64,000 nt of DNA from Candidatus Methylomirabilota bacterium. Its GTDB lineage: Bacteria > Methylomirabilota > Methylomirabilia > Methylomirabilales > 2-02-FULL-66-22. The stretch lies in contig JACQVN010000009.1 in NCBI GenBank assembly GCA_016209735.1, positions 30,381 through 94,380 of the forward strand, in the 5' to 3' direction. The translations under genes and the position numbers were made by a program. Numbering within the stretch: position 1 is the first letter of the stretch; each line of letters starts with the position of its first letter. Below are positions 7,420-62,786 of the stretch, in pieces. Under the pieces are notes generated by a model that made no database searches, had not been told where the DNA came from, and saw only the letters and a list, made by a program, of their open reading frames with translations.

Positions 7420-7583
7420 AAATCCCCCTAACCCCCCTTTACAAAAGGGGGGCGGAGGGGGGATTGCGAAAGGGGGGCGGAGGCCTGTGTGCGCCAAGCG
7501 AAGCGCCTGCCTGCCCCGCCCGCGGCGCAGGCAGATCGCACGCAGACAGGCGATGCAGACAGGCGGCAGGCAGGGGGGATTTC
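7420..7583. repeat. AATCCCCC...CCCCCTTT-N-AAAGGGGG...GGGGGATT palindrome carrying a nested CCTGCCTG/CAGGCAGG element (7484-7574)
   Basis: The right arm ...GCGGAGG / GGGGATTT is interrupted by about 90 nt. The same architecture occurs at 33535-33623. Confidence 0.75.
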
Positions 7584-19663: not shown

Positions 19664-19664
19664 C

Positions 19665-20942: not shown

Positions 20943-21329
20943 CGGGCGAGCTGGCAGCTGGCAACGGGCCGAGCCGCAGCGGGCAGGGGAACAGACCATG
21001 GACCGTGGACCATGGACCGTGGACCATGGACGATGGACCGTGGACCATGGACCACGGGAGAGCAGGGGAGCAGAGGAGCGGGGGGCCGAGGGGCGTAGCG
21101 CACAGGGCAGCGGGCAGAAAGCAGAAGGCAGCGGGCGACAGGTGATCCGGAGGCGGTGACGCGTAGCACGTAACGCGTAAGACGTAAAGCGTGAAACGTG
21201 AAACGTAATACGTAAAACGTAAATCGTAAAACGTGAGAGGCAGCGATGCTTCCTGCGGGTGTTCGTTCGCTGCCTGCTGCCCGCTGTATCGTGCTGCCGG
21301 CTGCCTGCTGATTTCCGCTGGGAGAACGG

Positions 21330-22445
21330 ATGCCGAGCATCTTGATCGTGGACGACGAAGAAGGCCTCCTGAACTCCCTGGCGGCGGCCTTCCGCTTCCA
21401 GGGCTATCGAGTGGAGGCCGCGGAGACGGCGCAGGCCGCCCTGGAGGTGCTGGGACGGGAACCCTTCGACGTTCTCTTGACGGACGTGGTCATGCCGGGC
21501 ATGGACGGCCTGGCGCTCATGGAGCGCAGCCAGTCCCGCTTCCCCCGCATGCCTGTGGTCCTGATGACCGGCGGCACCACAGTGGAGACGGCCGTCCAGG
21601 CCTTGAAGGGCGGGGCCGCGGATTACGTCCTCAAGCCGTTCACCCTCACGGAGATCTTCCATGTCGTCGAGCAGGCCCTGGAGCAGGACCGCCTGCGACG
21701 GGAAAACCTGGAGCTCAGTGAGCTGAACCGCCGCCTAGGGGAGCTGGACCAGGTCAAGTCGAACCTCCTGTCGGCGATGACGCACGAGTTTCGCACCCCC
21801 TTGACCGTCATCCAGGGCTGGCTGGACCATCTCATGGGGGCCGAGGCCGAGGCGCTGACCCAGGGGCAGCGGGAGAGCCTGACCGCCATCCGCCAGAGCG
21901 TGCTCCGGCTGAGCCGGCTCATCGCCAACCTGCTGGCCTTGGTGGAGAGCCATGCCGGGCAGGGAACCGAGGGGGCCGGCCCGGTCAGCCTCTGGGAGCT
22001 CCTGCGGTCCGCCGCGGAGTTGGTCTCCGCCGAAGCCGCGAAGCGCGGCGTGGCGGTTTCCATCGGCGAGGCGGAGGGGATGTACGCGGTGGTCGGTGAC
22101 GGGGCGCGGCTCGGCCTCCTCTTCCTGAACCTGCTGGAGAACGCGGTCAAGTTCAGCGAACGGGGCGGAGCCGTCCGGGTCGCCGTCTCGAAGAGCGAGC
22201 GGGAGCTGGAGGCCTGCATCACCAACACCTCGGGCGAGATCCCGGCGGACCAGATCCCGCGCCTCCTCCAGCCTTTCACCCAAGGAGATATGGGGCTCAC
22301 GCGGGCCGCGGGGGGCCTGGGTCTGGGTCTGGCCGTGGTGCGCGCCATTGTGCACCGTCACGGCGGGGCGCTCTTCGTCGAGACGGGAAAGGGGCGGGGG
22401 ACCACGGTCCGGGTGCGCCTCCCGAGGGCGCCCCGGGAGGGATGA
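21330..22445 (+). CDS. Hybrid response regulator / histidine kinase (REC-HisKA-HATPase_c)
   Basis: N-terminal ILIVDDEE...LLTDVVMPGMDG...LKPF. H-box SAMTHEFRTPLT. N, G1 and G2 boxes LLENAVKF, ...GLGLGLAVVRAIV. Confidence 0.85.
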   Translation: MPSILIVDDEEGLLNSLAAAFRFQGYRVEAAETAQAALEVLGREPFDVLLTDVVMPGMDGLALMERSQSRFPRMPVVLMTGGTTVETAVQALKGGAADYVLKPFTLTEIFHVVEQALEQDRLRRENLELSELNRRLGELDQVKSNLLSAMTHEFRTPLTVIQGWLDHLMGAEAEALTQGQRESLTAIRQSVLRLSRLIANLLALVESHAGQGTEGAGPVSLWELLRSAAELVSAEAAKRGVAVSIGEAEGMYAVVGDGARLGLLFLNLLENAVKFSERGGAVRVAVSKSERELEACITNTSGEIPADQIPRLLQPFTQGDMGLTRAAGGLGLGLAVVRAIVHRHGGALFVETGKGRGTTVRVRLPRAPREG

Positions 22446-27182: not shown

Positions 27183-28333
27183 AGGTGCGGGGCTATTTCT
27201 CCCGGAGGGCGGGCTTCGCTGCCGATCGCGTGACCCTGCCGTCGACCCCTCCGCCCACCGTGGAAGAGGCCCTCGGCAGCGGCGCGTTTCTCCTGGAGCA
27301 GGCCGGCATCGAGAGCGCTCGCCTGGATGCCGAGTGCCTGTTGGGGCATGCCCTCAGCCTGCCGCGCTGGAGGCTGGCCGCGGCCCCGCAGCGCCGCCTC
27401 AGCCCCGAGGCGTTCGTGGCCTACCTCAGCCTGCTGGAGCGGCGCGAGCGGCGGGAGCCCCTGGCCTACCTGGTGGGTGGGCGGGAGTTCTGGTCGTTGC
27501 CCCTGGCGGTGAGCCGGAATGTCCTGGTGCCGCGTCCGGAGACCGAAACCGTGGTGGAAGTCGCCCTGGCGGTCTGCTACGGGACAGACCCGCTGGGGCT
27601 CGAGCCGAGCGCCGAGCGCCGAGCGCCAAGCGCCAAGCGCCAAGCGCCGAGCGCCGAGCGCCGAGCGCCGGGGACCGGGGACGGCGGGCGGCCGTCACCC
27701 TCGAACCGCGAATCCCGCCTGGCGGCGGGATCTGCGTCCCGCCGAGGCGGGACTTCGACCGCGAACCTGGAACCTCGAACTTGGAACCTGAAACCTGAAA
27801 CCTCGAATCTCTTGATCGTGGACCTGTGCACGGGGAGCGGGGCCATCGCCATTGCCCTGGCCCGCGAGCTCCCCTCGGCCACGGTGCTGGCCTCCGATAT
27901 CTCCTGGCGGGCGCTCCGCGTGGCGCGCGCCAACGCCGCCGAGCAAGGGGTTGCGGAGCGGATCACGTTCCTGCGGGGGAGCGTCTGGCGGGCGGTGGCC
28001 GGGGCCCTGGGGGACCGGCAGGCAGACGTGGTGGCCGCCAATCCTCCCTACATTCCCAGCGGCCGGATCCCGGCCTTGATGCCCGAGGTGCGCTGGGAGC
28101 CGCGGCGGGCCCTGGACGGCGGCCCCGACGGCCTGGCGATCATCCGGGACATCGTGGCGGGGGCCCCGCAGCACCTCCGGCCGGGCGGCGTGCTGCTCCT
28201 GGAGGTCGGGGCAGATCAGGGGAACGCGGTCACCGCGATGCTGGGGATCGCGGGCGCGTTCGAGGCCTGGCGCGTCGTGCCGGACCTGGCAGGGCTTGAC
28301 CGCGTCGTCGTGGCGCGACGACGCGGCAAGTGA
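27179..28333 (+). CDS. prmC: Release-factor glutamine N5-methyltransferase PrmC, with a roughly 70-aa in-frame repeat insertion
   Basis: LAYL.GGREFW...L.V...VLVPRPETE, then the insertion, then [15 protein letters not shown] and ANPPY (NPPY motif). ATGA overlap with prfA. Confidence 0.85.
27601..27808 (+). repeat. Three repeat modules inside prmC: (GCCGAGC/GCCAAGC)n, a CCCGCC..GGCGGG hairpin, and (GAACCTSG)n
   Basis: Units identical to the intergenic families at 37551-37590, 3575-3615 and 13040-13148. Confidence 0.85.
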
Positions 28334-28680
28334 AAAGTTAAAACCGACAACCGACAAGTTAAAACCGACCTGCCGGCGCCGCTGGCGCGGCAGGCAGGCA
28401 ACCGACAAGTAAAGCCGACAACCGACGAGGCAAGAGTGACTAAAGACAAGGCAAGAGGCAAGATGGACAACCGATCCTGCGGTCCGCAAGGCAAACCGAT
28501 GAATGGATTGCTGTCGTAGATGCTCCCGCCTTCGCCGGACTGCTCTTACATTTTAACTTGTCGGTTGTCGGTTTTGCATTTTAACTTGTCCACCCGGGGC
28601 GGATCGGCTTTTCATTTTGCCTTGTCGGTTGTCGGTTTTAACTTTTGACTTGTCGGTAGTCCGTTTTGCATTCCGCCGGA
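28331..28680. repeat. AT-rich foldback filling the prmC-murA spacer
   Basis: 28331-28359 (gtgaaaagttaaaaccgacaaccgacaag) pairs with 28621-28649 (cttgtcggttgtcggttttaacttttgac) at 28 of 29 positions. Further inverted units lie inside, plus a CCTGCC..GGCAGG palindrome. Confidence 0.85.
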
Positions 28681-28687
28681 GGCGTGA

Positions 28688-29944: not shown

Positions 29945-30428
29945 CATGTTAAAATGCAAAACCGACAACGGACAAGTCAAAAGTTAAAACCGACAACCGA
30001 CAAGTGAAAAATTGAGGCCGCAACCGACAACGGACAAGTGAAAAGTTAAAGCCGAGAATGGACAGCGGTGTCGTGTCTCCCTGCAGAATTGCCCGACATA
30101 TCCAGGGCGTATCCTCCCGGCGTCATTCCCGCGCAAGCGGGAATCCAGATTTGGGCCATCCCCGAGTGAGGCATTCGGAGACGGGTGGGCTTCCGCTCCC
30201 CGATAGGGGCTTTCTGGGACAGGCTTCACGGGAGCGATGAGAGTTTTCATGACCGCACTCGTGCAAACGCAGAGATGTTGCCGGATATATCGAGGAGTGC
30301 TGCTATCAGACACCAGTCCTACTCCTTCGGCTGGTATCACTTTTGACTTGTCGGTTGTCGGTTTGAACTTGTCGGTTCGCACTTGTCGGATTTGACTTGT
30401 CGGTTGTCGGTTTTGCATTTTAACTTGA
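29945..30428. repeat. AT-rich foldback filling the murA-hisG spacer, with a unique core of about 270 bp
   Basis: 29948-29978 (gttaaaatgcaaaaccgacaacggacaagtc) pairs with 30394-30424 at 30 of 31 positions. The core contains a GTCATTCCCGCGCAAGCGGGAATCCAG hairpin. Confidence 0.85.
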
Positions 30429-33534: not shown

Positions 33535-33623
33535 AAATCCCCCCAACCCCCCTTTGCCAAAGGGGGGCGAGGCCTGCCTGCGCCAGGCGAAGCGCCTGCC
33601 TGTGCGTGCCGCACGCAGCCAGG
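33535..33623. repeat. AAATCCCCCC...GGGGGGATTT palindrome with a nested CCTGCCTG...CAGGCAGG element (33573-33614)
   Basis: The interruption is at the same position (GCGAGG / GGGGATTT) as in 7420-7583. Confidence 0.75.
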
Positions 33624-33679
33624 CGGCAGGCAGGGGGGATTTCGCCGGGTGATGGCCTACGCGAGCTGAATTGGGGGTA

Positions 33680-33818
33680 CCTGGTTTTTGCGCTCGGCGC
33701 GCAAGAACCAAACAGGGTGGAGCAGAGAATTTTGGTCGGTGTTCACTGCCGGCGAGTCCCCCAAGGGTTCCCTGATGTGTTTCAATTATGGTTTTTGCGT
33801 GCCAGCGCAAAAACCAGG
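33680..33818 (+). mobile_element. MITE/PATE-like element, copy 3 (internal-deletion derivative, both terminal hairpins intact)
   Basis: Shares the first 55 nt and the last 70 nt with copy 1/2 and lacks about 115 nt of core. Its right end ...AAAACCAGG runs into AGGTAGC-ATG of hisB. Confidence 0.75.
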
Positions 33819-34422: not shown

Positions 34423-34531
34423 GGATTTGCGATTGCCGATTGGGGCACAGCGCAAAGCGCACGGAGCACAGCGCACAGCGCGCGGGGCACAGAGCACAGG
34501 GCAGCGATTACGGGGCAGCGAGCAGCTGGCA

Positions 34532-34562
34532 GGTGTAGGGGCGGCCCTGTGTGGCCGCCCGA
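34532..34562 (+). repeat. GTAG-REP hairpin, copy 6
   Basis: GGTGTAGGGGCGGCCCTGTGTGGCCGCCCGA. Confidence 0.8.
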
Positions 34563-34949
34563 CACCGGGCGCGGGGGACGGGGCAGCGGTTAGCTGGCAG
34601 CGGGTAGCGGGCACAGCGCACGGGGCACGGCGCACAGCGCACAGGGCATAGGGTAGCTGGCAGAAGTCAGGGGTCAGTAGTCAGCGGGCAGCGGGCGGTG
34701 GAGCGGGGGGAACGGACCATGGACCATGGATAGCAGGGCGCGTTGAACGTGGAACGTGGAACGTTGAACGTTTAACGTGCGAAGCAGGCCGTACCGTTCT
34801 TATCATGAGTGGGCGGGCATGAAGCCCACCCCTACGCAACCACAACCGATCACGGCCCACGGGAGTCGTCGTAGGGGAGGAGTGTATCCCCTCCCGACGG
34901 GTTGCGCGTTCATGGCGTAGGGATGTGGGTGGAAGCCGGCAGCGGGCCA

Positions 34950-34981
34950 GGTGTAGGGGCGGCCCCATGTGGCCGGCCCGG
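34950..34981 (+). repeat. GTAG-REP hairpin, copy 7
   Basis: GGTGTAGGGGCGGCCCCATGTGGCCGGCCCGG. Confidence 0.8.
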
Positions 34982-35267
34982 CACAGGGCACGGGGCAGCG
35001 GGCAGGAGGGCGAGCCGCAGCGAGATCCCGCCGGGAGGCGGGACAGCGGGCAGCCGGCAGGAAGGCAGGGGGCAATCGGGTAACCCATGATCCGAAGGCG
35101 GCGATGCGTAACGCGTAACACGTAACACGTGAAACGTGAAGCGGTAAAACGGGAAAGGCGGAGATACTGCCTGCGGTTATTCGTTCGCTGCCTGTTGCGA
35201 GCTGCCTGTTGCCTGCTGGAACGGATGCCCCTCTTGCGACTCTGGTTGTTTTCGTGCGAGGTATTTG

Positions 35268-36332: not shown

Positions 36333-36380
36333 AAATCCCCCTGTCCCCCCCTTTGTCAAAGGGGGGCGAGGGGGGATTTC
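36333..36380. repeat. AAATCCCCC...CCCCCTTTGTCAAAGGGGGG...GGGGGGATTT palindrome, uninterrupted copy
   Basis: Compare 7420-7583, 33535-33623 and 40400-40446. Confidence 0.75.
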
Positions 36381-37148: not shown

Positions 37149-37972
37149 TGCTGGCCAAGCGAATCATTCCGTGTCTGGATGTGAAGGATGGCCGGGTGGT
37201 GAAGGGTACTCGCTTCGTGAACCTGCGGGATGCGGGCGACCCGGTCGAGGTGGCGGCGCTCTACGATGCGCAGGGGGCCGACGAGCTGGTCTTCCTGGAC
37301 ATCACGGCCTCCCACGAGCGCCGCCGGATCATGATCGACGTAGTCGCGCGGACGGCCGACCAGGCTTTCATGCCCCTCACGGTGGGGGGCGGGATTCGCT
37401 CCCTGGAGGACATCCGGGATCTCCTGAAGGCCGGCGCCGACAAGGTGTCGCTGAACACGGCGGCGGTGGAGCAGCGGGAGCTGATCCGACGGGCCGCCGA
37501 GCGGTTCGGCAGCCAGTGCATCGTTCTGGCCATCGACGCCAAGCGGCGCGGAGAGCCGAGAGCCGAGCGCCGAGCGCCGAGCGCCGGGGAGGAGTCTCGG
37601 CGCCCGGTGCCCGGTGCCCGGTGCTCGTGGGAGGTGTTCGTTCACGGGGGGCGGACGCCCACGGGAAAGGATGCCGTGGCCTGGGCCGTGGAAGGGGAGC
37701 GGTTCGGCGCGGGGGAGATCCTCCTGACCAGCATGGATCGGGACGGGACCAAGAGCGGATACGACCTGGATCTCACCCGTGCCATTGCCGAGGCCGTGGG
37801 CATTCCCGTGATCGCCTCGGGCGGGGCGGGGACGCTGGCCCACCTCTACGACGGCCTGACGGCAGGCAAGGCGGACGCGGCGCTGGCGGCATCTATGTTC
37901 CACTATCGCGAGGTCACGGTCGCGGAGGTGAAGCGGTATCTGGCAGAACGCGGCGTGCCGGTGAGGCTCTGA
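37148..37972 (+). CDS. hisF: Imidazole glycerol phosphate synthase cyclase subunit, with a roughly 25-aa in-frame repeat insertion
   Basis: [54 protein letters not shown], and IASGGAG. ATGA-type overlap with hisA. Confidence 0.9.
37551..37627 (+). repeat. (GCCGAGM)4 plus (GCCCGGT)3 heptamers inside hisF
   Basis: gagagccgagagccgagcgccgagcgccgagcgccgg...cgcccggtgcccggtgcccggtgctcg. Encodes [24 protein letters not shown]. Confidence 0.85.
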
Positions 37973-37983: not shown

Positions 37984-38089
37984 AGACCATGGACCATGGA
38001 CGATGGACCATGGACGGGGGACCGCGGACCATGGGACCCGCGGTTAATCCGATGTGCTCCTATGGTCCATCGTCCATGGTCCATGGTCG
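37984..38089. repeat. Long hairpin whose arms are (GGACCAT)n tandem repeats
   Basis: 37984-38013 (agaccatggaccatggacgatggaccatgg) matches the reverse complement of 38060-38089 at 28 of 30 positions. The loop is about 46 nt. It lies directly after the hisF stop. Confidence 0.85.
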
Positions 38090-40399: not shown

Positions 40400-40446
40400 A
40401 AATTCCCCCTCCGCCCCCTTTGACAAAGGGGGGGACGGGGGGATTT
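40400..40446. repeat. AATTCCCCC...CCCCCTTTGACAAAGGGGG...GGGGGGATTT palindrome
   Basis: Same family as 36333-36380. Confidence 0.7.
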
Positions 40447-42945: not shown

Positions 42946-44897
42946 TCCCGGAAGACGTGGTCGCCGAGATCCTCCAGCGCACCGATATCGTGGAGCTGAT
43001 CGGGAGCTACTTGCCCCTGCGGGCGGCCGGGAAGGCCCACAAGGCGCTCTGCCCATTCCACACCGAGAAGACGCCGTCCTTCGTCGTGAACCCGGAGCGG
43101 CAGATCTTCCATTGCTTCGGCTGTGGAGAGGGGGGGGACGCCATCGCCTTCCTGGTCAAGCACGAGCGATTCACCTTCCCCGATGCGGTACGTTTCCTGG
43201 CGGAGCGGGCCGGCGTGCCCCTCCGGCTCGAGCGGGGAGCGGCGGGACCGGACCGGGACGGCCGGCTCTTGCTCTTCGAGGTCCAGCGGGAAGCCGCCGC
43301 CCATTTCCGGGCGAACTTGCTGGGTTCCGAGGGCGCCGGGGCTCGCAACTATCTGGCCAACCGTGGCCTCACGCCGGAGGTGGCCGACCGGTTCCAGTTG
43401 GGCTATGCTCTGCCGCGCTGGGACGGGCTGCTTCGCGCCCTGCGCTCCCGGACCTACTCGGAGAAGGTTCTCGAGGCCGCCGGCCTGATCGTGCCCCGGC
43501 AGAACGGCTCCGGCCATTATGACCGGTTTCGACACCGGGTCATGATTCCCATCTGGGATGTGAGCGGGAAGGTGGTGGCCTTCGGGGGTCGGGCGCTGCC
43601 GCCTGCCGCCACCCTGTCGCCGGGCCAGCCTGGCGCGGGGCAGACCGGCGACCTGTCTGCGCCTGCCTGTCCCGCTCCGGAGCGGGACGCAGACAGGTGC
43701 AATGCACAGGCAGGCGGCAGACAGGAGGCGCGGGCAGGCCTGCCTGGCCGCGGGACGCAGGCAGGGGACGTCCAGGAGGTCAAGTACCTCAACTCCCCCG
43801 AGACGGCCATCTACCGGAAGGGGACGCACCTGTACGGCTTGAACCTGGCCGCCCGCGCCATCCGCGAGCGCAAGCAGGCGATCGTGGTGGAGGGCTACTT
43901 CGACGCCATCGCGCTGCATGCCGCGGGCGTCGAACAGGCCGTGGCAACCCTCGGCACCGCGCTGACGCCGGAGCAGGCGCGCCTCTTGGGCCGCTACACG
44001 GGGACGATCATCCTGCTCTTCGATCCCGACGCGCCGGGCATTGGCGCGGCCCGCCGGAACCTGGAGCAATTGATCAACGTCGAGTTGGACTGGCGGATTG
44101 TCCTCCTGCCGGACGGGCTCGACCCGGACGAATTCATCCGCAGAAACGGCGCGGAATCCTTCGCGGAGGCGCTAGGGCACGGGCAGGATCTGGTGGAGTT
44201 CTTCCTGGACCAACGCGTGTCCGGTTTGGATCTCAAAGATCCGGTCCAGCGGGCACGGGCCACCGACCGGTTGATCGAGGTCGTGGCCCTCATCGACAAC
44301 CCGATCCGCCGCCAGGGGTATCTCCAGCGCATTGCGCAGAAGACCGGCATGCCCGATCGGGTGCTGGGCGAGGCCGTGGGGCGGCAGCGAGGACGGGCCG
44401 GCCGCCAAGATGCGGCACTGCCCCCGGCTCCGCCGCCGGCCATGCCGCCGACGGCGGAGGAACAGTTGATCTTCATCGCGCTTAGTTATCCGGAGTGGCG
44501 AGCCCGGATCGCCGCGGCTCTCAAGCCGGAGGACGTGGAGGAGCCGATGCTGCGGCGGATCTTCACCGAGTATGTGCTGCAGCCTGCCACCGGAGCGGGG
44601 CCGCGCCCCACCAGCCTCCTGCCGCCGGAGGTGGAGCGTCGGCTGGCCTCGTTGTGGCTCCGCGACGCGCACCTGGGCGGAGAGGAGCCGCCCCAGGAGG
44701 CGGCGGAAACGACCGTTGCCCGCACCGTCGGGGACTGCATGGCCAAGATAGCCCAACGCTCGATCCGGGCTGCGCAACAGTCGCGCCAGCAAGCGCTGCA
44801 GGCGGCGGCCCGTGCTGGGGACAACGAGCGCGCGCTCGCCTTGCTACAAGAGCAACTTTCGGCTCGAAGCCGCGACAAGACCCAAGAGGGGGGATGA
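42942..44897 (+). CDS. dnaG: DNA primase DnaG, with a roughly 57-aa in-frame repeat insertion
   Basis: Zinc ribbon CPFH.EKTPSF.V......FHCFGCG..GD, DRFR.R.M.PI.D..G.V.AFGGR, then the insertion, then [14 protein letters not shown] and the TOPRIM motif VVEGY.D. Confidence 0.9.
43598..43772 (+). repeat. CCTGCCTG/CAGGCAGG-type palindromic repeats inside dnaG
   Basis: gcgcctgcctgtcccgctccggagcgggacgcagacagg...cacaggcaggcggcagacagg...gggcaggcctgcctggccgcgggacgcaggcagg. Same family as 15020-15055, 28365-28400, 7484-7574 and 33573-33614. Confidence 0.8.
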
Positions 44898-46984: not shown

Positions 46985-47069
46985 ACCAAGGACCAAGGAC
47001 CAAGGACCAAGGACCAAGAACAGGGGCACCTTCGGGTCCGTCTCCATTGGGATTTGGTCATTGGTCATT
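46985..47069. repeat. (CAAGGAC)n and (TTGGTCA)n heptamers after the rpoD stop, forming an imperfect foldback
   Basis: caaggaccaaggaccaaggaccaaggaccaag ... gatttggtcattggtcattg. Confidence 0.7.
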
Positions 47070-47088: not shown

Positions 47089-47165
47089 GGGCCCATAGCT
47101 CAGTTGGTTAGAGCCACCGGCTCATAACCGGACGGTCGCAGGTTCGAGTCCTGCTGGGCCCACCA
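47089..47165 (+). tRNA. tRNA with CAT anticodon (elongator Met, or Ile2 if lysidine-modified), CCA encoded
   Basis: Hand-folded cloverleaf: acceptor GGGCCCA/TGGGCCC, D arm GCTC-AGTTGGTTA-GAGC, anticodon arm CCGG-CTCATAA-CCGG, T arm GCAGG-TTCGAGT-CCTGC, then A-CCA. Confidence 0.9.
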
Positions 47166-47179
47166 CCAAAATCCCCAAG

Positions 47180-47214
47180 AAAAGCCCGTCTGACGCCATG
47201 TTAGACGGGCTTTT
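47180..47214 (+). terminator. Rho-independent terminator just after the tRNA
   Basis: AAAAGCCCGTCT-gacgccatgtt-AGACGGGCTTTT. Confidence 0.8.
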
Positions 47215-47421
47215 GCATTCAGGAGAAGTGGGGTGCCGTTATGCGCGTTCTTGCACTTTCTTGCCGTTTTTCTGTAGCGAACCGGCACCTGTACCGGCAC
47301 TTGAGGCCATACCCCTGGGGAGTATACATGGGGGCACCTACCCCCCCGGCAAGGCCAGGGGGGCATAGGCAGGGACAGGTGGTCTTCGGTATCGAAAGGC
47401 TGAAACGCCTGGAGGTGTAAC

Positions 47422-47658
47422 GTGCGGCTATTCGGGCGGGTTGCCATCATGCGGTATCTCGGCTACAGCGGGACTTGCCATCACACCTGGGCGAGCATCC
47501 GCCAGCGGTTCTCCGGCGCGATCTACCGTGACGTGGACAATGGCCGGGTGTGGGCAGAGGGGGAACATCTAGATGCTTTGCGGTCTGCCGGCGATCCTGC
47601 GGCGGCCCTGCGGCGACTCCAGCGCCAAGTTGAGCGGTTCGAGACGCGGAGATCGTGA
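47422..47658 (+). CDS. Hypothetical small protein (island-borne)
   Basis: 78-aa ORF with a GTG start. No recognisable motif. Confidence 0.3.
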   Translation: MRLFGRVAIMRYLGYSGTCHHTWASIRQRFSGAIYRDVDNGRVWAEGEHLDALRSAGDPAAALRRLQRQVERFETRRS

Positions 47659-47832
47659 CGGGGACCTGTTTACGCCGTCTTGCGGACTATCGAAACGCCA
47701 CGGGCTTGCAAGCATCGCAGACAAAGTGTAGCGTGTGAAGCACTCCCCTGGCCTAGGGTAGCTCCCGAAAAGCCGCTTCCCGAGCGGCCTGGCCGGGGAA
47801 CCTCTCGGGGCTCTGCATCAGGGAGGAGCATC

Positions 47833-48453
47833 ATGCCACGTCGCCCTGACCGGCCGCTGCCCCCGCCACACTTGGTTTTCCCCGCGCTTTTTGGTGAAGC
47901 TGCTCAAGATGAGCGGCCGATGGATGCAGGCACGCGTGAAAGATTCTCCGACGCCTGCATAGAGGGCCTGCTGTCCCGCCTGGAAGCCAAGGATGACAAG
48001 GAGAAATTCCTCCGGGAGCTGATACCTGAGTTGCAACGGAGATTTGAACGGGGAATCACCGGGGGGGCGGTTTACCGTATTCTTCGACACGCAAAGCCCG
48101 CCCGCAAGAACGAACGCCCTAGCTGCAAGCCTGGCCTGCTACTCTATCACTACGCCCTAGCGGAGAAATTGCTGAGGGGCATTCTCGTTTCAAATCGGCA
48201 AGCAGCAAAACGCGCAGACGCTCTAGTGAAATACGCCGATGCACTCAATACACGCCTGAATGAGGAGTATCGCTGCGACGACTGCGGACGCAAAACCATT
48301 CCTCCAGACGACTTCAGAGAATGGGCTCTCAGGAAACATACAGAGCGGGAGATAATCCTGAAGCTCTTGGCCTACCACCACCACGGCTTTTCTCCCGACA
48401 GCCTGCGCCGGCTACTCGACAAGGCCGCTCAACAGAATCGGCCTCTCCGCTGA
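47833..48453 (+). CDS. Hypothetical protein (island-borne)
   Basis: ATG preceded by GGGAGGAG. 206 aa, with a CDDCGRK motif. GC is lower than the chromosome in its 3' half. Confidence 0.4.
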   Translation: MPRRPDRPLPPPHLVFPALFGEAAQDERPMDAGTRERFSDACIEGLLSRLEAKDDKEKFLRELIPELQRRFERGITGGAVYRILRHAKPARKNERPSCKPGLLLYHYALAEKLLRGILVSNRQAAKRADALVKYADALNTRLNEEYRCDDCGRKTIPPDDFREWALRKHTEREIILKLLAYHHHGFSPDSLRRLLDKAAQQNRPLR

Positions 48454-48582
48454 CAATCTCGCTACTTATTTGATACGCGAAGCTTCCTGAAAAAGTCGCC
48501 AAACCTGGTTTGTGCGCCACGTACCCTTCGTGCAGGCACCATTTGCAGATTATCACGGTTTGCCGCATGGAGGAGACAAGCG

Positions 48583-48783
48583 ATGGATTACATCACGGTT
48601 GACGAGGCTGCTGAACTGACGGGATGGACACGGGCCACATTGTATTCGAAAGCGAGCAGAAGGCAGATCCCGAGCTACCGGATAGGACGGTCCTTGCGTT
48701 TTCGTCGGCAGGACATGCTAAACCTGTTCAGGCCCCGCCCCGCCCTGCGCCCGCTGGCCGACAAGGAAGGGGGCGAGTCATGA
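48583..48783 (+). CDS. Excisionase-family / MerR-like helix-turn-helix DNA-binding protein
   Basis: ITVDEAAELTGWTRATLYSKASRRQIPSYRIGRSLRFRRQDM matches the excisionase-type HTH pattern. GGAGGAG RBS. The stop overlaps the next start. Confidence 0.7.
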   Translation: MDYITVDEAAELTGWTRATLYSKASRRQIPSYRIGRSLRFRRQDMLNLFRPRPALRPLADKEGGES

Positions 48784-50843
48784 GCGCCCCCACCATTGCC
48801 CCCACGAAGACCAAGACGCACCTTGACGCGGCTCTTGACTATCATGCACTCGACTGGACCGTCATTCCGGTGAGTGCCGACAAGAAACCCCTAGACTTCA
48901 TAAAGTGGGGACGCTGGCGCAACCAGCGCCAAACCGAGGCCGAGGTGCGGGCCCTGCCGTGGCATCGGGCCTATGGTATCGCCCTACTTACCTGGCCCGT
49001 CTCCGACTTGGTGGTGGCGGACTTCGACGGTCCGCACGCCGAGGAAGCGTGGCAGGTGAAAGGCAAGCCGCTCCCCGACACGGCGCGGACCCGCACTAGG
49101 AGCGGGGGGAAGCACCTGGTTTATCATCCCCCCGCTGGCATCGAGCAGTTCACGGACGACAACGGCGGAAAGCCCAAGCGCAAAATACGACTGATCGAGG
49201 CCGACTGCGACTGCATGAAGGACGGCCACCCGAAACCGTGCGGGGTGGATGTTCTGGTCAACGGCTATTTCATTGTTCCGCCGTCTCCGGGGTATGTGGA
49301 GGACCCTGACTGGCCCCTTGAACCCACGAACATTGTCACCATCCCGCACGAAGTCTTAGACCTTGCCCGTGGGACTCAGGGTTCGCCCAGGAAAGCGGAG
49401 GTGTCATCCGAGCCTAATTGGTACGGGGAGGCCATGCGGGGGCCCGTCCCGCAGGGTCAGCGGAACGAAACTGCCACCCGGCTGGCAGGACTGCTACTTG
49501 CGAAGGGGTTGAGCGCCGACTATGTGACGGACACCTTGACCCCGTGGGCTGAGCGAACATGCGCCCCGCCGATGGACCTGCGCGAGCTGCGGGCCACGGT
49601 GCAGAGCGTGGCGCGGCGGGAAGCCACCAAGCCCACGTTTGCCGATGAGCCCGACCCGGAGCCGAGCGACACGGTGCTAGGGCGGTTCCCTGAGAAAGCA
49701 TGGCGCGGCATCTTTGCCACCTACCGCGAGGCCATGCGGGAGGCCACCCACGCGCCCGAGGTGGCGATCTTCACCGGGTTGTGGGCAGCGGCAGCGGCAA
49801 GCCTGGCCCGCCGTGTCCACTTCTACCTCGGCATGGAGATATTTCCCAATGTGGCCCTCGCGGTGTACGGCGACACAGGCGACGGCAAGACGACCGGGAC
49901 ACGCCACGGGGTAGACCGGCTGCGCCTCCTGGGCGATCACGTCGGCGTGCTGCGTGGAAGCGGTAGCGGCGAGGCGGTGGTGGACTGGCTGCGCGGCGAA
50001 AAGGACGCTCACTTGTGGTACGCCGAAGAATACTCCGAGATCCTGATCCGGGCCGGGTGGGACGGGGCCACGATCAAGAGCACGATCACCACCCTGTACG
50101 ACTGCCCTGAGACGTTCGAGTTGAAATTCCGGCGCGACAAAGACGCTACGCCACTCACTAGGCCGACGCTCAACCTGTTGGTCTGCACGACGCCGGCGAC
50201 GTTCTGGAAATACCTGCGGGACGACGATATAGAAAGCGGGTTCGGCAACCGCTGGCTGTACCTGGCAGGGGACCAGCGCCCGACCATCCCACGGCCCGCC
50301 CGCCCGGATGAAAAATTGCTGGCCGTGGTGGAAGAGGCCCTGGCGCGGCTCACCGGGTTGACCCCGACCGAGTGCGCCCTGGCGCCCGACGCGGAACCGC
50401 TTTGGGATGAATTCTACCGGGCGTGGGAAGCGGAGAAGCTGCAACCATTGACCCGCATGGCAGCCAAGCGGGTGCCGCAGTATGTCCTGAAACTGGCCAT
50501 GCTGTACGCGGCCCTTGAGGGGACGGTGCCCACCCTGACGGCCGAGCAATTGGTGGCGGCGATCATGGTAGGGAAGTATGCGACCGACTGCGCGGACCGG
50601 CTCATGCGGGACCTAAAGCCTGGGGGGTTTCGGAACCGGCTGGAGATCCGCGTTCAGGAGATCCTGAAACACGATCCACTGCCCATGTACAAGATCCAGC
50701 GTCAGGTGGGGGGCAACGTGGCGGTGGAAGATCTTGACCGGACGATCCGGGCGCTGGACCGGGCGGGAATGATCGAGGTGATAGGCAAAACACCGAAGCA
50801 ACTGCCCGTCTGGGGCCGGGTGGGGGTGGACTATGGGAAATAG
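48780..50843 (+). CDS. Bifunctional primase-polymerase (Prim-Pol) with PriCT-like and P-loop helicase (DUF3987-like) domains
   Basis: W.VIPV...KKP...W, VVADFDG (DxD), SGGKHLVY, GQRNETATRLAGLLLAKG (PriCT-like), and the Walker A-like GDTGDGKTT. Confidence 0.8.
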   Translation: MSAPTIAPTKTKTHLDAALDYHALDWTVIPVSADKKPLDFIKWGRWRNQRQTEAEVRALPWHRAYGIALLTWPVSDLVVADFDGPHAEEAWQVKGKPLPDTARTRTRSGGKHLVYHPPAGIEQFTDDNGGKPKRKIRLIEADCDCMKDGHPKPCGVDVLVNGYFIVPPSPGYVEDPDWPLEPTNIVTIPHEVLDLARGTQGSPRKAEVSSEPNWYGEAMRGPVPQGQRNETATRLAGLLLAKGLSADYVTDTLTPWAERTCAPPMDLRELRATVQSVARREATKPTFADEPDPEPSDTVLGRFPEKAWRGIFATYREAMREATHAPEVAIFTGLWAAAAASLARRVHFYLGMEIFPNVALAVYGDTGDGKTTGTRHGVDRLRLLGDHVGVLRGSGSGEAVVDWLRGEKDAHLWYAEEYSEILIRAGWDGATIKSTITTLYDCPETFELKFRRDKDATPLTRPTLNLLVCTTPATFWKYLRDDDIESGFGNRWLYLAGDQRPTIPRPARPDEKLLAVVEEALARLTGLTPTECALAPDAEPLWDEFYRAWEAEKLQPLTRMAAKRVPQYVLKLAMLYAALEGTVPTLTAEQLVAAIMVGKYATDCADRLMRDLKPGGFRNRLEIRVQEILKHDPLPMYKIQRQVGGNVAVEDLDRTIRALDRAGMIEVIGKTPKQLPVWGRVGVDYGK

Positions 50844-51255
50844 GCTACCAACCTACCAACCTGTAAGTGTGGTTGCCAACCGGGGTTCCGGGGTTGGCAG
50901 GTTGGCAACCATATCTCCGTTGCAAGCCCTGGTGGACCGATTGGAGAATGCGCCACCACCGGAAAGAGGATCGGGCGACCCCCTGGCCCTTCTCCTGGTG
51001 ACCCGACTTGACCATTTGGCCGAGCCGCTGGCGGTGGTGTCGTCTGTCCTGCGTGAGACCATATACCTGGTGGCGAATGATCGGCAGGCAGCGGCGGTCA
51101 GGGCGAAGGGCGGGACCCCGTACACCCCGCCCGAGGTGGCGATCCTGCGGGACCTGTACGCGGCGGTACGCCCCGAGGTGTGGGCCGAACGGTTGCGGCT
51201 GATCCACCAGGCCAAGCGCACATTTGATGGCGACGTGCGCGGGAGCGCGGCATGA
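50833..51255 (+). CDS. Hypothetical protein (start uncertain; the 5' end overlaps a cluster of CCAACC iterons)
   Basis: 140-aa ORF with no motif recognised. Confidence 0.3.
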   Translation: MGNRLPTYQPVSVVANRGSGVGRLATISPLQALVDRLENAPPPERGSGDPLALLLVTRLDHLAEPLAVVSSVLRETIYLVANDRQAAAVRAKGGTPYTPPEVAILRDLYAAVRPEVWAERLRLIHQAKRTFDGDVRGSAA

Positions 51256-51301
51256 GAAGCGAGGCGCGTCCACCCCCTCCGGGAGCGAAATGGTGAGCAA
51301 C

Positions 51302-52363
51302 CTACCTCAGAAGGTTTGGGAAAAAGCGGATGAGCAGCAACAAAAGGACACCCATTCCAATTGTGATGACCCAGACCCGAAGCGAGCGGAGAGCCCATGA
51401 CACGCTTTGAAGCTCACTCTGCACTTCGTCTCGAAACTCTACGAGGTTCTCATCTGCTGGAGGCTTTCGTGGCTCCCGCGACGTGGAAATAGCGGCTTCA
51501 CGGCATGCACTATCAGAATCTTCCCTCCCCAGTTTTAGGGTTTCCTTGTCGCGGAAGTCGCAGCTATAAAGGATTACCTGCCGGAGATCGGGGTCTTTCT
51601 GGGCTCGGTAGACCTTGGCCTTTGTCGAATCGGGCGCAACAACGGTTTCATAAATCGCACATGGTATCCCACTCTTGGCCGGCCACGTTCCGGCAAGCTC
51701 CCAGAGGCGCAAGAGGTATTGTTCGACCCCCCCGGCATAATCAATCAGGTGCTCGTCATAGCCGGTCTCGTCAATGAGCGTTTTCCTTCTTCGTTGAAAC
51801 TTGTTCTGTTTCACCAGGCTCTCGTTCGTGAGGTAGGCAACAATCAACCCCGTACGCTCTTTAGTGCTGATGCCAAGCTCTTTCTTCTGGTAGTCAAAGA
51901 GTTTCTCGATGAATAGTTCAGGTACTTCTGGATTCCGAACTAACGCGAGACGTTCCAAGGGGCTGGATCTCTGAAACCGCTCCCCGAAGTCCGACCAGAG
52001 CGCTGACAGGCCAGGGCAAATGACTTTGTTCTCAAGCAAACAAGCACGAACGAATGGGTCCGGATCGTTCTGAAGACGCCCCTCTAGGTTCCGTTCCGGG
52101 AGGCTGTATGTCAGCTTATCACCGTCGGAGTGACACTCACGGAAATCGAGGATCTTGCCATGGCGGGCGATCCATGCCCTAAGCTGTGGGTTTGGATCTT
52201 CGACGGCACGGAGCACGATCTCGTAAGGGGGCCCAATCAGAGGAGTTCTGTAGACCTTTCGTAACAGACGAATGCGGCCCACAACGTCAGACGCTTCGTA
52301 CTCCCGCCGCACTTCCTCCAGAGTGTAGGCATCATAGATTGAGTACCTCGTCAGCCTGTTCAT
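51302..52363 (-). CDS. HEAT/LRV-like repeat protein with a C-terminal transmembrane anchor (island cargo)
   Basis: Repeats EDPNPQLRAWIARH, NDPDPFVRACLLEN, VRNPEVPELFIE and KDPDLRQVILYS. C-terminal VWVITIGMGVLLLLLIRFF. Visibly lower GC than its surroundings. It is the only intact minus-strand gene in the window. Confidence 0.6.
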   Translation of the reverse strand: MNRLTRYSIYDAYTLEEVRREYEASDVVGRIRLLRKVYRTPLIGPPYEIVLRAVEDPNPQLRAWIARHGKILDFRECHSDGDKLTYSLPERNLEGRLQNDPDPFVRACLLENKVICPGLSALWSDFGERFQRSSPLERLALVRNPEVPELFIEKLFDYQKKELGISTKERTGLIVAYLTNESLVKQNKFQRRRKTLIDETGYDEHLIDYAGGVEQYLLRLWELAGTWPAKSGIPCAIYETVVAPDSTKAKVYRAQKDPDLRQVILYSCDFRDKETLKLGREDSDSACREAAISTSREPRKPPADENLVEFRDEVQSELQSVSWALRSLRVWVITIGMGVLLLLLIRFFPNLLR

Positions 52364-52519
52364 GGTCGCACCTCTCGGTGGATGGGAGTGAAGATGCGGC
52401 AGGTAATTCGGACCACGGTTACGGCCGGGACGTTATCAGGAGGCGGATGCCATGTCAAATATCCCCCTGGGGCAAGTTACCCCTTGACAGCGCAATAGAG
52501 AGTGCTTATGATAATAATC

Positions 52520-52771
52520 ATGCCACTCAAGACGATAGCGCAGCAAGTGCAAACCTGGCGGGAACACCGAGAGTTGAGTCAGCGGGCGCTGGCGAAAGCG
52601 GCGGGCGTGGCCCCGGTGTTGGTGCAGAAGATCGAGGCCGGGGCCATCGTTGACCCCCGCCTGTCCAGCCTGCGCAAGCTGGCGGGGGCCCTGGGCGTGA
52701 CGGTGGGCGAGTTGGTGGACGGGAGCCCGGCGAAGGCCAAGAAGCGGCCCACGAAGCGGGCCGGGAGGTAG
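52520..52771 (+). CDS. XRE-family helix-turn-helix transcriptional regulator
   Basis: WREHRELSQRALAKAAGVAPVLVQKIEAG...PRLSSLRKLAGALGVTVGELV. Lies immediately upstream of int and diverges from the cargo gene. Confidence 0.75.
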   Translation: MPLKTIAQQVQTWREHRELSQRALAKAAGVAPVLVQKIEAGAIVDPRLSSLRKLAGALGVTVGELVDGSPAKAKKRPTKRAGR

Positions 52772-54040
52772 GTGAACATGGACGCGAAGGCCGAGCACGT
52801 GATCGTGATCCCGGAAGCGTGGGCCGAGGCCCAAGTCAACGCCGTCGCCGTCGAAGTGGAGAAGCGGACGAAGCGGAAGGGGAAGAAGGAGGAGCCCCCC
52901 GCCAAGGTGCGCGGGGTGTTCTTCCGACCGAACGCGAACGGCCAAGTCAAGGACCATCTCGGCCGACTCGGAGACTGGTGGTGCCGCTACACCGACCTGG
53001 CTGGCATGGAGCATCGGGAGAAGGCCGGAAGCCGACCTGCAGCCATTGACTTGTACGGGCGGCGACGGTCGGAGGTACGCCAGGGGAAGCAATTCCCCGA
53101 GAGCCTGCGGAACCTGCGGAAAGCCTCACTGGCCGAAGTCTGCCACGACTACCTTGTGTCGCTGGCGGCGAACGGGCGGGACGCCAGGGGCCAAGCGGCG
53201 TTTCGACTATCCGAGGTGCAGAGCATTCTCGGTGCGGTTGCGGCGGAGACGGTGACGCCCCAGGAGATCGAGAAGCTGAAGGCGAAGTTGGCCGAGACTC
53301 CGGCCCGTGGGCGGAAGGATCCCCAGGACCCGAAGAAAGAGCGCCCCCGAGCCCCAGGCAGCGCAAACCGCTACCTGCAAGACCTCCGGGCGGCGTTCAA
53401 CGTGGCCCGACGCAACGGGAAGGTGGAGAAGAACCCCGTGGGTGACGTGCGGCTGCTGCGGGAGAACAACAAGCGCGTGCGGGAGATCACAGCCGACGAA
53501 GAAAAGGCCATCCTGACGGCGCTGGACCCCCAAGAGCGGCGGTTTCATACCGATCTGCGCCCGATGGTAAAGCTTCTGCTGGAGACCGGCCTACGGGCCG
53601 GCGAGGCGTGCCGCCTGCGCTGGCCTGACGTGGACTGGCGGGCCGAGGTGGCGACCCTGCCCAAGACGAAGGCCGGGGCGGCGCAGCATGCGGCCCTGAA
53701 CGCCGCTGCCCTGGCGATCCTCCGGGCCCTCGGCCCCCAGGGTGACGGTTACGTGTTCGCGTGGAAGGGCGGGCGGCCGTGGACGGTGGGCTACCTGACT
53801 CACGCCTTCCACAAGGCGGCCCTCAAGGCGGCCGTGGTGGACGTTCACCCTCACGACTGCCGCCACACGTTCGCCTGTCGGCGTCTGCGGGCCGGCGTGG
53901 ACATCTTCGCCGTGTCGAAGCTGCTCCGGCATGCATCGGTGACGATGAGTGAGCGGTACGCGCACCTTTCGCAAGCGGACCTGAAGGCGGCGGTTGAGCG
54001 TGCATCTCCGACGCCGACCGGCACTCCAACCGGCACCTGA
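52772..54040 (+). CDS. int: Tyrosine-type site-specific recombinase / integrase
   Basis: C-terminal catalytic region ...LLLETGLRAGEA (Arg I), HDCRHTFA (HxxR), and LLRHASVTMSERYAHL (catalytic Tyr). ATG 52778 is the more likely start. Confidence 0.9.
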   Translation: MNMDAKAEHVIVIPEAWAEAQVNAVAVEVEKRTKRKGKKEEPPAKVRGVFFRPNANGQVKDHLGRLGDWWCRYTDLAGMEHREKAGSRPAAIDLYGRRRSEVRQGKQFPESLRNLRKASLAEVCHDYLVSLAANGRDARGQAAFRLSEVQSILGAVAAETVTPQEIEKLKAKLAETPARGRKDPQDPKKERPRAPGSANRYLQDLRAAFNVARRNGKVEKNPVGDVRLLRENNKRVREITADEEKAILTALDPQERRFHTDLRPMVKLLLETGLRAGEACRLRWPDVDWRAEVATLPKTKAGAAQHAALNAAALAILRALGPQGDGYVFAWKGGRPWTVGYLTHAFHKAALKAAVVDVHPHDCRHTFACRRLRAGVDIFAVSKLLRHASVTMSERYAHLSQADLKAAVERASPTPTGTPTGT

Positions 54041-54094
54041 AAAACGGGGCGGCTGTAAATGCTTGCCATTGCGACGGTTCAAGAGATAGACCAT

Positions 54095-54143
54095 CCGGCT
54101 CATAACCGGACGGTCCCAGGTTCGAGTCCTGGTGGACCCACCA
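54095..54143 (+). repeat. attR: duplicated 3' half of tRNA(CAT)
   Basis: CCGGCTCATAACCGGACGGTCcCAGGTTCGAGTCCTGgTGGaCCCACCA. It has three differences from the tRNA, two of which are a compensatory T-stem pair swap. Confidence 0.85.
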
Positions 54144-54203: not shown

Positions 54204-55208
54204 ATGCCCCGTGGCCCGCGACTGGATGCCCCCGGCGTTCTGCACCATGTCATGGTGCGAGGCCTGGATCGGCAGGTCATTTTCCGAGATGACCGGGACC
54301 GGGACGACTTTGTCGCGCGCCTCGCCGGTCTTGTTGAGGCAGGCGCGTGGACGATTTATGCCTGGACGCTTCTCCCAAATCACGCCCACCTGCTCGTGCG
54401 GACGGCCCGGCGTCCACTGGCACGTACCATGCGCTCGCTCCTCACCGGGTATGCGGGCACCTTCAATCGGCGGCATAAGCGGAGCGGACACCTCTTCCAG
54501 AACCGCTACAGATCCATCGTGGTCGAGGAAGATCCATACTTTCTCGAACTCGTCCGCTACCTCCACCTCAATCCATTGCGGGCCGCTATCGTCACTGACT
54601 GGCGGGCATTGGAGCGTTATCCGTATTGTGGGCACGGAGCGATCCTCGGGAAGCAGGAGGTTGACTGGCAGGAAACAAGTGCGGTCCTCCGCCAGTTCGC
54701 AGAGCGCCTGCCCACCGCGCGGGCACGATACCGGACCTTCGTGGCGGAGGGTGTCTCTCGCGGGCGACGGCATGATCTGATGGGGGGCGGCCTCATTCGT
54801 AGCGCTGGAGGGTGGGCCGCCGTAGCCGTCCTTCGCCGCGGGCGTGAGCGGTATGCAGGCGACGAACGGATTCTGGGCAGCAGTGAATTCGTCGAGACGT
54901 TGCGTGGGGAGATCGAGCGGACGGAAGCCGGGCGCCTGCACGCGAGGTGGCGCAAGCTCACCGCAGCTGCTCTGATAGCACGGATAGCTACTGCCGAGAA
55001 GGTCCCTGTGGAGCGTCTTCTGGGCTCGGGCAGGCCCCGGACAGTCTCTCGGATCCGTCGGGGCCTCGCCTACCTTTGGGTCGAGGAACTGGGCAGGAGC
55101 GGCCGGGCCCTTGCCCGGGAGCTTGGAATCTGTCCGGAAGCAATCTACCACGCGGCAGTGCGGGGACGGAAGGAAGCCGTGTATTGGCAAGCAATGCTGG
55201 AATCGTAA
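54204..55208 (+). CDS. IS200-like Y1/HUH transposase of the REP-associated (RAYT) type, with a C-terminal DnaA_C-like HTH
   Basis: HVM.RG..R..IF.DD.DR..F, the HUH motif LLPNHAHLLV, GHLFQNRY.S, and the catalytic Tyr region YFLELVRYLHLNP. The C-terminal RIRRGLAYLWVEELGRSGRALARELGI is HTH-like. GGAGG RBS. Confidence 0.75.
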   Translation: MPRGPRLDAPGVLHHVMVRGLDRQVIFRDDRDRDDFVARLAGLVEAGAWTIYAWTLLPNHAHLLVRTARRPLARTMRSLLTGYAGTFNRRHKRSGHLFQNRYRSIVVEEDPYFLELVRYLHLNPLRAAIVTDWRALERYPYCGHGAILGKQEVDWQETSAVLRQFAERLPTARARYRTFVAEGVSRGRRHDLMGGGLIRSAGGWAAVAVLRRGRERYAGDERILGSSEFVETLRGEIERTEAGRLHARWRKLTAAALIARIATAEKVPVERLLGSGRPRTVSRIRRGLAYLWVEELGRSGRALARELGICPEAIYHAAVRGRKEAVYWQAMLES

Positions 55209-62604: not shown

Positions 62605-62640
62605 CCGTTCGCCCTCAGTAGGGGCGACGCATGCGTCGCC
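62605..62640. repeat. Perfect palindrome GTAGGGGCGACGCATGCGTCGCCCCTAC (GTAG-REP variant)
   Basis: 28-nt perfect inverted repeat with GTAG/CTAC at both ends. Confidence 0.8.
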
Positions 62641-62786
62641 CCTACATGTCGAAGGGCGACGCGACGTTCGTGGTTCGATCCCGCCCGGGCGGGGCTCGCC
62701 ACGAACGGGTGGAATACCTTAGCGTAATAACGACCGAGAGCGCTTACTGCTCCCGGACGAAACCTGCGGCGAACCGCACGGGGAAA

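Follow-up and report, generated by a model that had tools for sequence, protein, structure and literature searches.

Template-switch (quasi-palindrome) mutations make or perfect hairpins by copying a nearby complementary strand, and they work with local sequence only. Rickettsia palindromic elements (RPEs; Ogata et al., 2000) are described in PMC10969869 as units of ~100-150 bp that belong to defined sequence families and lie in dozens of unrelated genes per genome. Intragenic MITEs (miniature transposable elements with inverted repeats), including ERIC, BOX and the Anabaena MITEs, can also fuse in frame with host genes (PMC10969869). We found no paper in the literature searched that links Methylomirabilis or NC10 bacteria with palindromic repeats. 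Here we analyze a stretch of 64,000 nucleotides from a Candidatus Methylomirabilota bacterium (assembly GCA_016209735.1, contig JACQVN010000009.1; this whole stretch is 'the window' below), in which the DNA primase gene, dnaG, carries palindromic DNA in frame within its conserved core. The original prediction, made from the window alone, was that a mobile repeat had colonized this essential replication gene without inactivating it, as RPEs do. We compared the insert with palindromes elsewhere in the window and with the dnaG genes of other NC10 bacteria; these comparisons span 64 kb of the window genome and 2-22 kb for each relative.

Results

An in-frame palindromic insert in the primase core

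The window primase has 100% identity with an NCBI entry, named DNA primase, of a metagenome-assembled genome (MAG) in candidate division NC10. It possesses the Zn ribbon, DNAG_N, TOPRIM and DnaB-binding domains of a bacterial DnaG (Pfam Zn_ribbon_DnaG, DNAG_N, Toprim_2/4 and DnaB_bind; E = 2e-35, 8e-34, 9e-21 and 3e-13) as well as the GGR and KYxNSPET motifs, and its gene lies in the usual neighborhood, rpsU-yqeY-mutS2-dnaG-rpoD, with the his operon upstream. The DNAG_N match is broken into two stretches, the first of which stops at residue 220 (position 99 of the 128 in the Pfam profile). Between FGGR and KYLNS there are 63 residues, compared with seven in the DnaG proteins of E. coli and B. 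subtilis and seven, of the type ALDPKEV, in ~100 of the 120 best homologues. The oversized gap had been noticed in the original prediction, which placed the insert at 43598-43772, right to within a few bases of the span in Table 1. It also held that the frame stays open and that the downstream TOPRIM region is intact; the open reading frame (ORF) and the Pfam matches agree, and the Zn ribbon and DnaB_bind domains are likewise intact.

Table 1. Coordinates of the dnaG insert, related intergenic palindromes and a transposase gene in the window (RAYT, repetitive extragenic palindrome (REP)-associated tyrosine transposase; L numbers denote relatives).
Feature	Position	Strand	Remarks
dnaG (DNA primase), 651 aa	42942..44897	+	ORF and Pfam; start overlaps mutS2 stop
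Left flank, codons G-G-R-A-L	43584..43598	+	relatives read GGCGGGCGGGCGCT; insertion point after CT of GGCGGGCGGGCGCT; from a nucleotide comparison of empty with filled alleles
In-frame insert, 168 nt = 56 aa net	43599..43766	+	77% GC; zero stops in six frames
24-nt block	43626..43649	+	in window, not in 85%-identical relative L081 (codon alignment)
36-nt palindromic unit CCTGCCTGTCCCGCTCC/GGAGCGGGACGCAGACAGG	43662..43697	+	not in L081 (codon alignment)
19-nt motif CAGGCAGGCGGCAGACAGG	43707..43725	+	common to intergenic modules at 7556 and 33616
Terminal hairpin unit CCTGCCTGGCCGCGGGACGCAGGCAGG	43739..43765	+	conserved in L081 and L083
KYLNSPET codons	43782..43805	+	K-Y pair = E. coli K229/Y230 (alignment to 1eqn, 5guj)
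Longer filled composite copy	7484..7574	+	in repeat copy 7420-7586; additional nested blocks
62-nt CCTGCCTG...CAGGCAGG module	33573..33634	+	within AAATCCCCCC...GGGGGGATTT repeat 33535-33646, hisC-hisB spacer
Empty copy of AAATCCCCC...GGGGGGATTT repeat	36333..36379	+	GCGAGG abuts GGGGATTT, no CCTGCC module
Second empty copy	40400..40446	-	reverse orientation; GCGAGG abuts GGGGATTT
30-nt hairpin CCTGCCTGCGCCGCGGGCGCGGCAGGCAGG in AAAACCGR^CAACCGACAAGTT repeat unit	15025..15054		fold z = -2.78
Sister copy of 30-nt hairpin	28369..28398		equal position in equal repeat unit; fold z = -2.19
Y1 (IS200-like/RAYT-like) transposase gene	54204..55208	+	PF01797 31.4 bits vs cut-off 23; candidate trans-acting enzyme

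Perfect inverted repeats of 10-12 nt run through the insert. Folded as DNA, it reaches -68.6 kcal/mol, compared with -56.1 +/- 3.3 kcal/mol for dinucleotide shuffles (z = -3.75; 0 of 200 shuffles were as good). Folded as RNA, it gave z = -3.64, and the three long dnaG inserts fell between z = -3.3 and -3.75. Two motifs of the insert are over-represented in the window as a whole: CCTGCCTG has 16 copies (4.8 expected) and GCAGRCAGG has 15 (2.45 expected), with four copies of each inside the insert. The 19-nt motif CAGRCAGGCGGCAGRCAGG was matched at 7556, 33616 (with one mismatch) and 43707, three matches where 0.02 would be expected, and it also occurs within the dnaG inserts of relatives L081 and L082. 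The insert is composed of CCTGCC...GGCAGG hairpin units and is kin to the repeat motif family found between genes.

The genic matches to CCTGCCTG or to the hairpin seed that were examined outside the insert were rejected as family members, being single chance occurrences in ordinary or conserved codons of the 64-kb window. The matches at 41608 and 42324 (mutS2) and at 60049 (aldo/keto reductase) are of this kind, one occurrence each in ordinary codons, as is the match at 19143, which by its translation encodes a DnaJ-like CxxCxGxG zinc-finger motif. Another genic match, at 31918, was seen as raw sequence only. Elsewhere in dnaG, a 32-nt palindrome (CTCCGCCGCCGGCCATGCCGCCGACGGCGGAG, 44428-44459) encodes 14 residues of the linker that joins the primase core to the helicase-binding domain.

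Inserts at one nucleotide of dnaG in scattered NC10 lineages

The presence/absence polymorphism anticipated among orthologues was found, with clean pairs of empty and filled alleles: 13 of the 119 NC10 DnaGs have an enlarged loop, of 15, 18, 19, 24-27, 43, 48 or 63 residues, and all of these loops fit the pattern AL + [PPA...(Q/R)AG] + [D/E]xxEV. In ~55 DnaGs from other phyla the gap is 7-10 residues, with one of 18, and no segment of equal length and conserved amino acids was seen in these distant relatives. Solved primases (5guj, 5vaz and 1eqn) have 2-4 unaligned residues at the insertion point in a sequence alignment. Because the segment is absent from most orthologues and variable in length in the rest, we rejected an ancestral conserved loop.

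DNA was obtained for ten carriers, which represent seven of the eight groups. At its smallest, the insert is a single 24-nt hairpin (CCCGCCTGCCGCGGCGCGGGCAGG), and the others consist of two tandem units or of nested units, with left arms of the CC(C/T)GCC type and right arms of the GGC(A/G)GG type. Most inserts begin with CCCGCC, the reverse complement of GGCGGG 4 nt upstream. Relative L081, whose loop has 43 residues, differs from the window by having two blocks fewer, one of 24 nt and one of 36 nt, indicating that the insert grows by addition of units.

Closely related pairs locate the insertion point to the nucleotide. L093 (empty, GGGCGGGCGCT^GGACGAC) and L087 (24 nt longer, CCCGCCTGCCGCGGCGCGGGCAGG) share 92.2% nucleotide identity, and L092 (empty) and L091 (51 nt longer) share 93.7%. 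The insertions in L087 and L091 lie at the identical nucleotide, after the CT of the Leu codon, with no duplication, and the flanks of filled alleles contain no imported tract. In a neighbor-joining tree of a single protein, DnaG with the loop removed, the carriers were scattered over 7-8 separate places. Fitch parsimony required 8 changes (7-8 over 100 bootstraps), compared with one gain followed by 17 exact losses. Judged from these sequences, the same position appears to have gained an insert independently in at least 7-8 NC10 lineages.

Other genes yielded nothing similar: among ten syntenic genes in five genomes, motif-bearing indels were found in dnaG only (the rpoD column was left out, having been in the wrong frame for the window). 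A genome scan for DnaG relatives, which was saturated by the generic primase motif, returned four NC10-type loci, all without the insert, and a metagenome scan for the filled junction returned 87 stretches, three of them dnaG. In L088, a second palindrome of the family (CCCTGCCTGCC/GGCAGGCAAGG, 21-24 nt) lies in another dnaG loop, RQN[ALPAGRQ]GTGHYDRF.

That second loop is itself variable in length among NC10 primases. It is expanded by 4-23 residues in P0057, P0058, P0062, P0066, P0067, P0071, P0079, P0102, P0109 and P0113, and lies at 10570-10600 of L088. In some of these expansions PAGR is the frame-1 translation of CCTGCCGGCAGG, and others are TGTTGTRG-type repeats.

Empty and filled sites between genes

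Related palindromic DNA had been reported in the original prediction at 15020-15055, 28365-28400, 7484-7574 and 33573-33614, and the motif is indeed present as hairpins at all four intergenic sites. Two of the four lie within a longer repeat, AAATCCCCCC...CCCCCCTTTGNCAAAGGGGGG...GGGGGGATTT, which has four copies in the window, two empty and two filled (Table 1). In the filled copies, the CCTGCCTG...CAGGCAGG module sits exactly at the GCGAGG/GGGGATTT junction with clean ends, and no target duplication was found when an empty and a filled copy were paired. The hisC-hisB spacer, which holds one filled copy, is ~340 nt long in the window, whereas hisC and hisB adjoin in relatives. The remaining two sites are 30-nt hairpins, each occupying one unit of an AT-rich AAAACCGACAACCGACAAGTT array in which the adjacent units have no hairpin. 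Neither the 62-nt module nor the hairpins in the AT-rich units are copies of their own flanks. Thus, with both empty and filled copies present, palindromes bounded by CCTGCC...GGCAGG behave as insertional modules in the window genome.

Consequences for the protein

The original prediction expected, if the insert is translated, a large new loop in the RNA-polymerase domain, and our structure model agrees. In an AlphaFold2 prediction based on a 60-sequence alignment, the confidence score pLDDT was 28-43 at residues ~228-276 and >88 on both sides. The model matched the primase cores of E. coli, B. subtilis and S. aureus (1eqn, 5guj and 4edg) with target-normalised TM scores of 0.83-0.87 (Foldseek). 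Probably, the 56 residues are translated and form a disordered surface loop, rich in Pro, Ala, Gly and Gln, near the active site; in the model the primase fold is left intact. The insert ends five residues ahead of the K-Y pair in KYLNSPET, and the E. coli counterparts, K229 and Y230, are basic-ridge residues needed for primer initiation (PMC7367122). We infer that the loop is tolerated rather than required, and that it is selectively neutral.

We also considered removal of the segment. An intein was rejected on account of length (56 aa, compared with at least ~130 aa needed) and of the Pro/Ala/Gly/Gln-rich composition. A self-splicing group I or group II intron or a ribozyme was rejected for lack of an Rfam hit: no Rfam family matched the insert, and the sub-threshold, microRNA-precursor-like hits on both strands mirror its hairpin shape only. 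Since the segment is shorter than an intein can be and Rfam returned neither an intron nor a ribozyme, nothing points to a removal mechanism.

Discussion

Origin of the insert

We think it reasonably likely that insertional hairpins of a dispersed family, with a preference for a half-site, entered dnaG and multiplied there. Short, GC-rich palindromic modules bounded by CCTGCC...GGCAGG would constitute a dispersed repeat family of the window genome, and would have entered dnaG at a single nucleotide, directly behind the CT in the Leu codon following GGR. They would then have multiplied inside the gene by nested and tandem addition of units. The survivors would be additions in multiples of three only; such additions, in palindromes that are stop-free in every frame, keep dnaG open. 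Upstream of the entry point, at a distance of 4 nt, lie the GGR codons (GGCGGGCGGG), whose sequence resembles one hairpin arm and may serve as a half-site. This likeness suggests that hairpins formed at the half-site on single-stranded DNA direct insertion, and GGCGGGCGGGCGCTGGAC is a candidate target for the hairpin inserts. Mobility in the strict sense, with a transposase acting in trans, is something we infer, as is the inserting enzyme or process. Of the predicted colonization by a mobile repeat, then, the hairpin family, the empty and filled sites and the open gene stand, while strict mobility is at that lesser strength and a template-switch hotspot is a live rival.

Several observations weigh against a dispersed family. 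The short dnaG inserts fold no better than shuffles. The dnaG insert has 8-19 nt in common with the intergenic copies, and the interiors are unlike. No further family hairpins were found in the 13-22 kb flanks of other carrier lineages, so that the dispersed family is documented for the window genome only, and no target sequence is common to all three insertion contexts. The Y1 transposase gene scores 61.3 bits with the NCBIfam model for REP-associated tyrosine transposases, under the cut-off of 80, and no CCTGCC hairpins were found flanking it. Finally, the ends of the 36-nt block of the window copy neighboring sequence and the first 10 nt of the insert in L091 are an exact inverted copy of the flank, both of which fit template switching.

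These last points belong to an explanation that we regard as possible but rather doubtful, namely that the site is a local mutational hotspot. The G-rich GGCGGGCGGG that encodes GGR would drive snap-back or template switching, giving an inverted copy, CCCGCC (Pro-Pro-Ala), and then further inverted and direct copies, with no mobile element; the likeness to intergenic palindromes would reflect the same mutational process. Insert starts are indeed the reverse complement of the GGR codons across a 4-nt loop (10 of 10 nt in the 51-nt gain of L091 and 9 of 10 in L101), and the 36-nt block (43662-43697) ends with the exact reverse complement of its left flank (43651-43661) and starts with 11 nt that recur 45 nt downstream. 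A hotspot also accords with every event lying at one nucleotide, with no other gene of the syntenic block being affected, and with the lack of family copies in the flanks of other carriers. However, the empty site cannot have templated the recurrent CCTGCC/GGCAGG signature, in which T/A stands in place of the C/G of the flank; as the signature does not occur within ~90 nt of the empty sites, the flank was not its source. For most of their sequence, the 51-nt and 24-nt inserts also lack a local template of at least 9 nt beyond chance, and the 62-nt intergenic module and the hairpins of the AT-rich units are not flank copies. We prefer the dispersed hairpin family over a purely local hotspot. 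The two have one putative step in common, in which the G-rich half-site would pair with an incoming arm on single-stranded DNA.

A bolder version of the dispersed family, which we consider unlikely, would be a minimal hairpin element of 12-24 nt with the core CCTGCC/GGCAGG. Such an element would insert seamlessly and repeatedly, across the phylum, at the half-site GGCGGGCGGGCGCT^GGA, within the part of an essential replication gene that encodes the catalytic domain. It would be homing-like, translated and far smaller than any known mobile unit, and a Y1/RAYT-type enzyme, or some undescribed route, would mobilize it on single-stranded DNA.

It is quite improbable that a single ancient insertion in the NC10 ancestor was inherited vertically and then removed by many precise deletions, or spread by short-tract homologous recombination between lineages. 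Common descent would trivially explain why carriers are alike in the position and ends of the insert (ALPPA...AGD), and palindromes are prone to deletion. This history nevertheless calls for ~17 independent, nucleotide-exact deletions, compared with 8 gains. There are no intermediate scars, the loops being of 7 or 9 aa or else of at least 15 aa, and no direct repeats at the junctions that would favor exact excision. Slippage between the CGGGC repeats would yield GGRAGD, which was never seen in our reading of the sequences, and the missing imported tract around filled alleles argues against recombination.

An assembly artefact, in which the palindromic segment, or else the pair of blocks that this contig alone has, came from mis-assembled, repeat-rich reads, is very improbable. 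Only a single contig is known to encode the exact 651-aa protein, and hairpin repeats are hard to assemble. On the other side, related alleles with 43- and 15-aa loops are identical in three independent assemblies each (L081/L082/L180 and L087/L101/L171), the window-unique blocks of 24 and 36 nt are both multiples of three that keep the frame, and the flanks are colinear with those of relatives.

What the insert means

Selfish palindromic DNA in coding genes would extend, in this reading, from Rickettsia to a free-living, high-GC phylum, NC10/Methylomirabilota, where its units are much smaller and modular. It also appears that 8-56 additional residues can be accommodated in the catalytic core of primase, five residues ahead of the basic-ridge Lys-Tyr pair that positions the initiating nucleotide. 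The recurrent exact gains, together with near-isogenic empty and filled alleles, offer a natural experiment on hairpin insertion and on what defines its target. In practice, the insert can serve as a lineage marker for NC10 MAGs, and automated procedures that align dnaG, call its domains or assemble it should take account of the insert.

Other repeats and islands of the window

The protein encoded by the Y1 gene, which has HUH (PNHAHLLV) and NRY motifs and is extended at length at its C terminus, gave no sequence match in the PDB. A separate, REP-like repeat with a GTAG head, GTAGGGGCGGCCC[CT][GA]TGTGGCCGCCCGGC, has seven copies on the + strand (3263-3470, 20816-20943 and 34530-34997, also 10106-10261), most of which adjoin tandem arrays of GGGCACAG/CGCACAG-type units. 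The window also has a perfect palindrome of the form GTAG...CTAC (62618-62645). The GTAG-headed repeat would be a more canonical partner for the Y1 transposase than the CCTGCC hairpins.

Another intergenic hairpin family, TGGTTTTTGCGC-loop-GCGCAAAAACCA, occurs at 417-445, 15539-15566, 15758-15786, 33682-33710 and 33789-33816, also at 7913-7932, often as pairs ~100-220 nt apart. The lepA-lepB spacer (14950-15840) holds a cassette of ~900 nt with a gene at 15070-15486 for a 23S rRNA intervening-sequence protein (PF05635); it is bordered by AACCGACAAGTTAAAA arrays on the left and inverted copies on the right (15785-15840), and similar arrays lie at 28327-28684 and 29948-30427. Intergenic DNA of the window is unusually rich in short tandem arrays, with units such as GGACCATGGACCGT, GAACGTTGAACGTG, GCTTCGACGGGCTCAT, CCGAGCG, GCGGTTCACGGTGCG and ACCAAGG, in spacers that include 6936-7214, 8854-9028, 11632-11907, 12964-13031, 20994-21053, 27589-27674, 37560-37624, 37984-38088 and 46985-47018. 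Long identical runs, for example the 35-mer TGGGTGGACATCGGCCTGTTCGTAGCCCTCCTGAC, connect 6455-6700 with 8547-8792 (~250 nt each), which looks like a local duplication involving ORFs without a Pfam match.

Beyond rpoD, a probable integrated island of ~7 kb (47089-54140; GC lower, at 0.58-0.63) starts at a tRNA gene (47089-47162), the 3' part of which recurs at 54076-54140 (the 21-mers at 47117/54095 and the 15-mers at 47139/54117 are identical). The island contains an int-alpA RNA (47746-47810), a Prim-Pol/PriCT/DUF3987 protein (48624-50840) and a phage-type integrase (52772-54037). Relative L089 has another island downstream of rpoD (14398-21875), one that encodes HicAB, a resolvase and a primase-like protein of the DUF927/Zn-ribbon kind. 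Integration seems to recur in NC10 genomes at the site that follows rpoD and its tRNA.

Comparison with known systems

The likeness to RPEs lies in palindromic repeats that sit in frame in a housekeeping gene, leave the ORF open and encode extra peptide, with intergenic copies as well. To this extent the predicted Rickettsia-like behavior was borne out; in unit size, sequence family and number of genes it was not. The dnaG units are 24-36 nt long with only 6-10 nt conserved at each end and interiors that vary among carriers, rather than a conserved family of ~100-150 bp encoding a conserved peptide. They pile up to 168 nt at one site that is hit repeatedly across lineages, and they come from another phylum with no sequence relation to RPEs. 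Because dnaG is the sole gene hit in the window and in the ten syntenic genes of five genomes, this is not a genome-wide colonization of many unrelated genes as in Rickettsia. By analogy, the insert would work like an RPE, without membership in that group.

By size and extragenic behavior, the closest system is that of the REPs, with their bacterial interspersed mosaic elements (BIMEs) and RAYTs. Like REPs, the units are GC-rich imperfect palindromes of 20-40 nt, present in several extragenic copies (15025, 28369, 7484-7574 and 33573-33634) that are clustered and nested. There is no target duplication, as expected of hairpin-specific single-strand transposition, and a Y1 transposase-like gene lies within the window. 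In contrast, REPs are extragenic almost by definition and the dnaG units are genic. The units start with CCTGCC or CCCGCC and not with the GT[AG]G head of REPs, which the separate repeat GTAGGGGCGGCCC... does have. As a cognate RAYT, the Y1 ORF passes PF01797 and falls short of the NCBIfam RAYT model, with flanks free of CCTGCC hairpins.

MITEs resemble the insert as small non-autonomous repeats with terminal inverted repeats and in-frame fusion. However, MITEs normally make target-site duplications and derive from identifiable insertion sequences, and neither was seen here: inverted ends are present, but there is no duplication at the two dnaG pairs or at the intergenic pair. The dnaG units are also several times smaller. 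Template-switch mutations share the flank-complementary insert ends but leave a motif signature common to unlinked loci unexplained. What is new relative to all of these is the combination of very small modular units, their pile-up to 168 nt in a catalytic domain, and recurrent, nucleotide-exact gains across a phylum.

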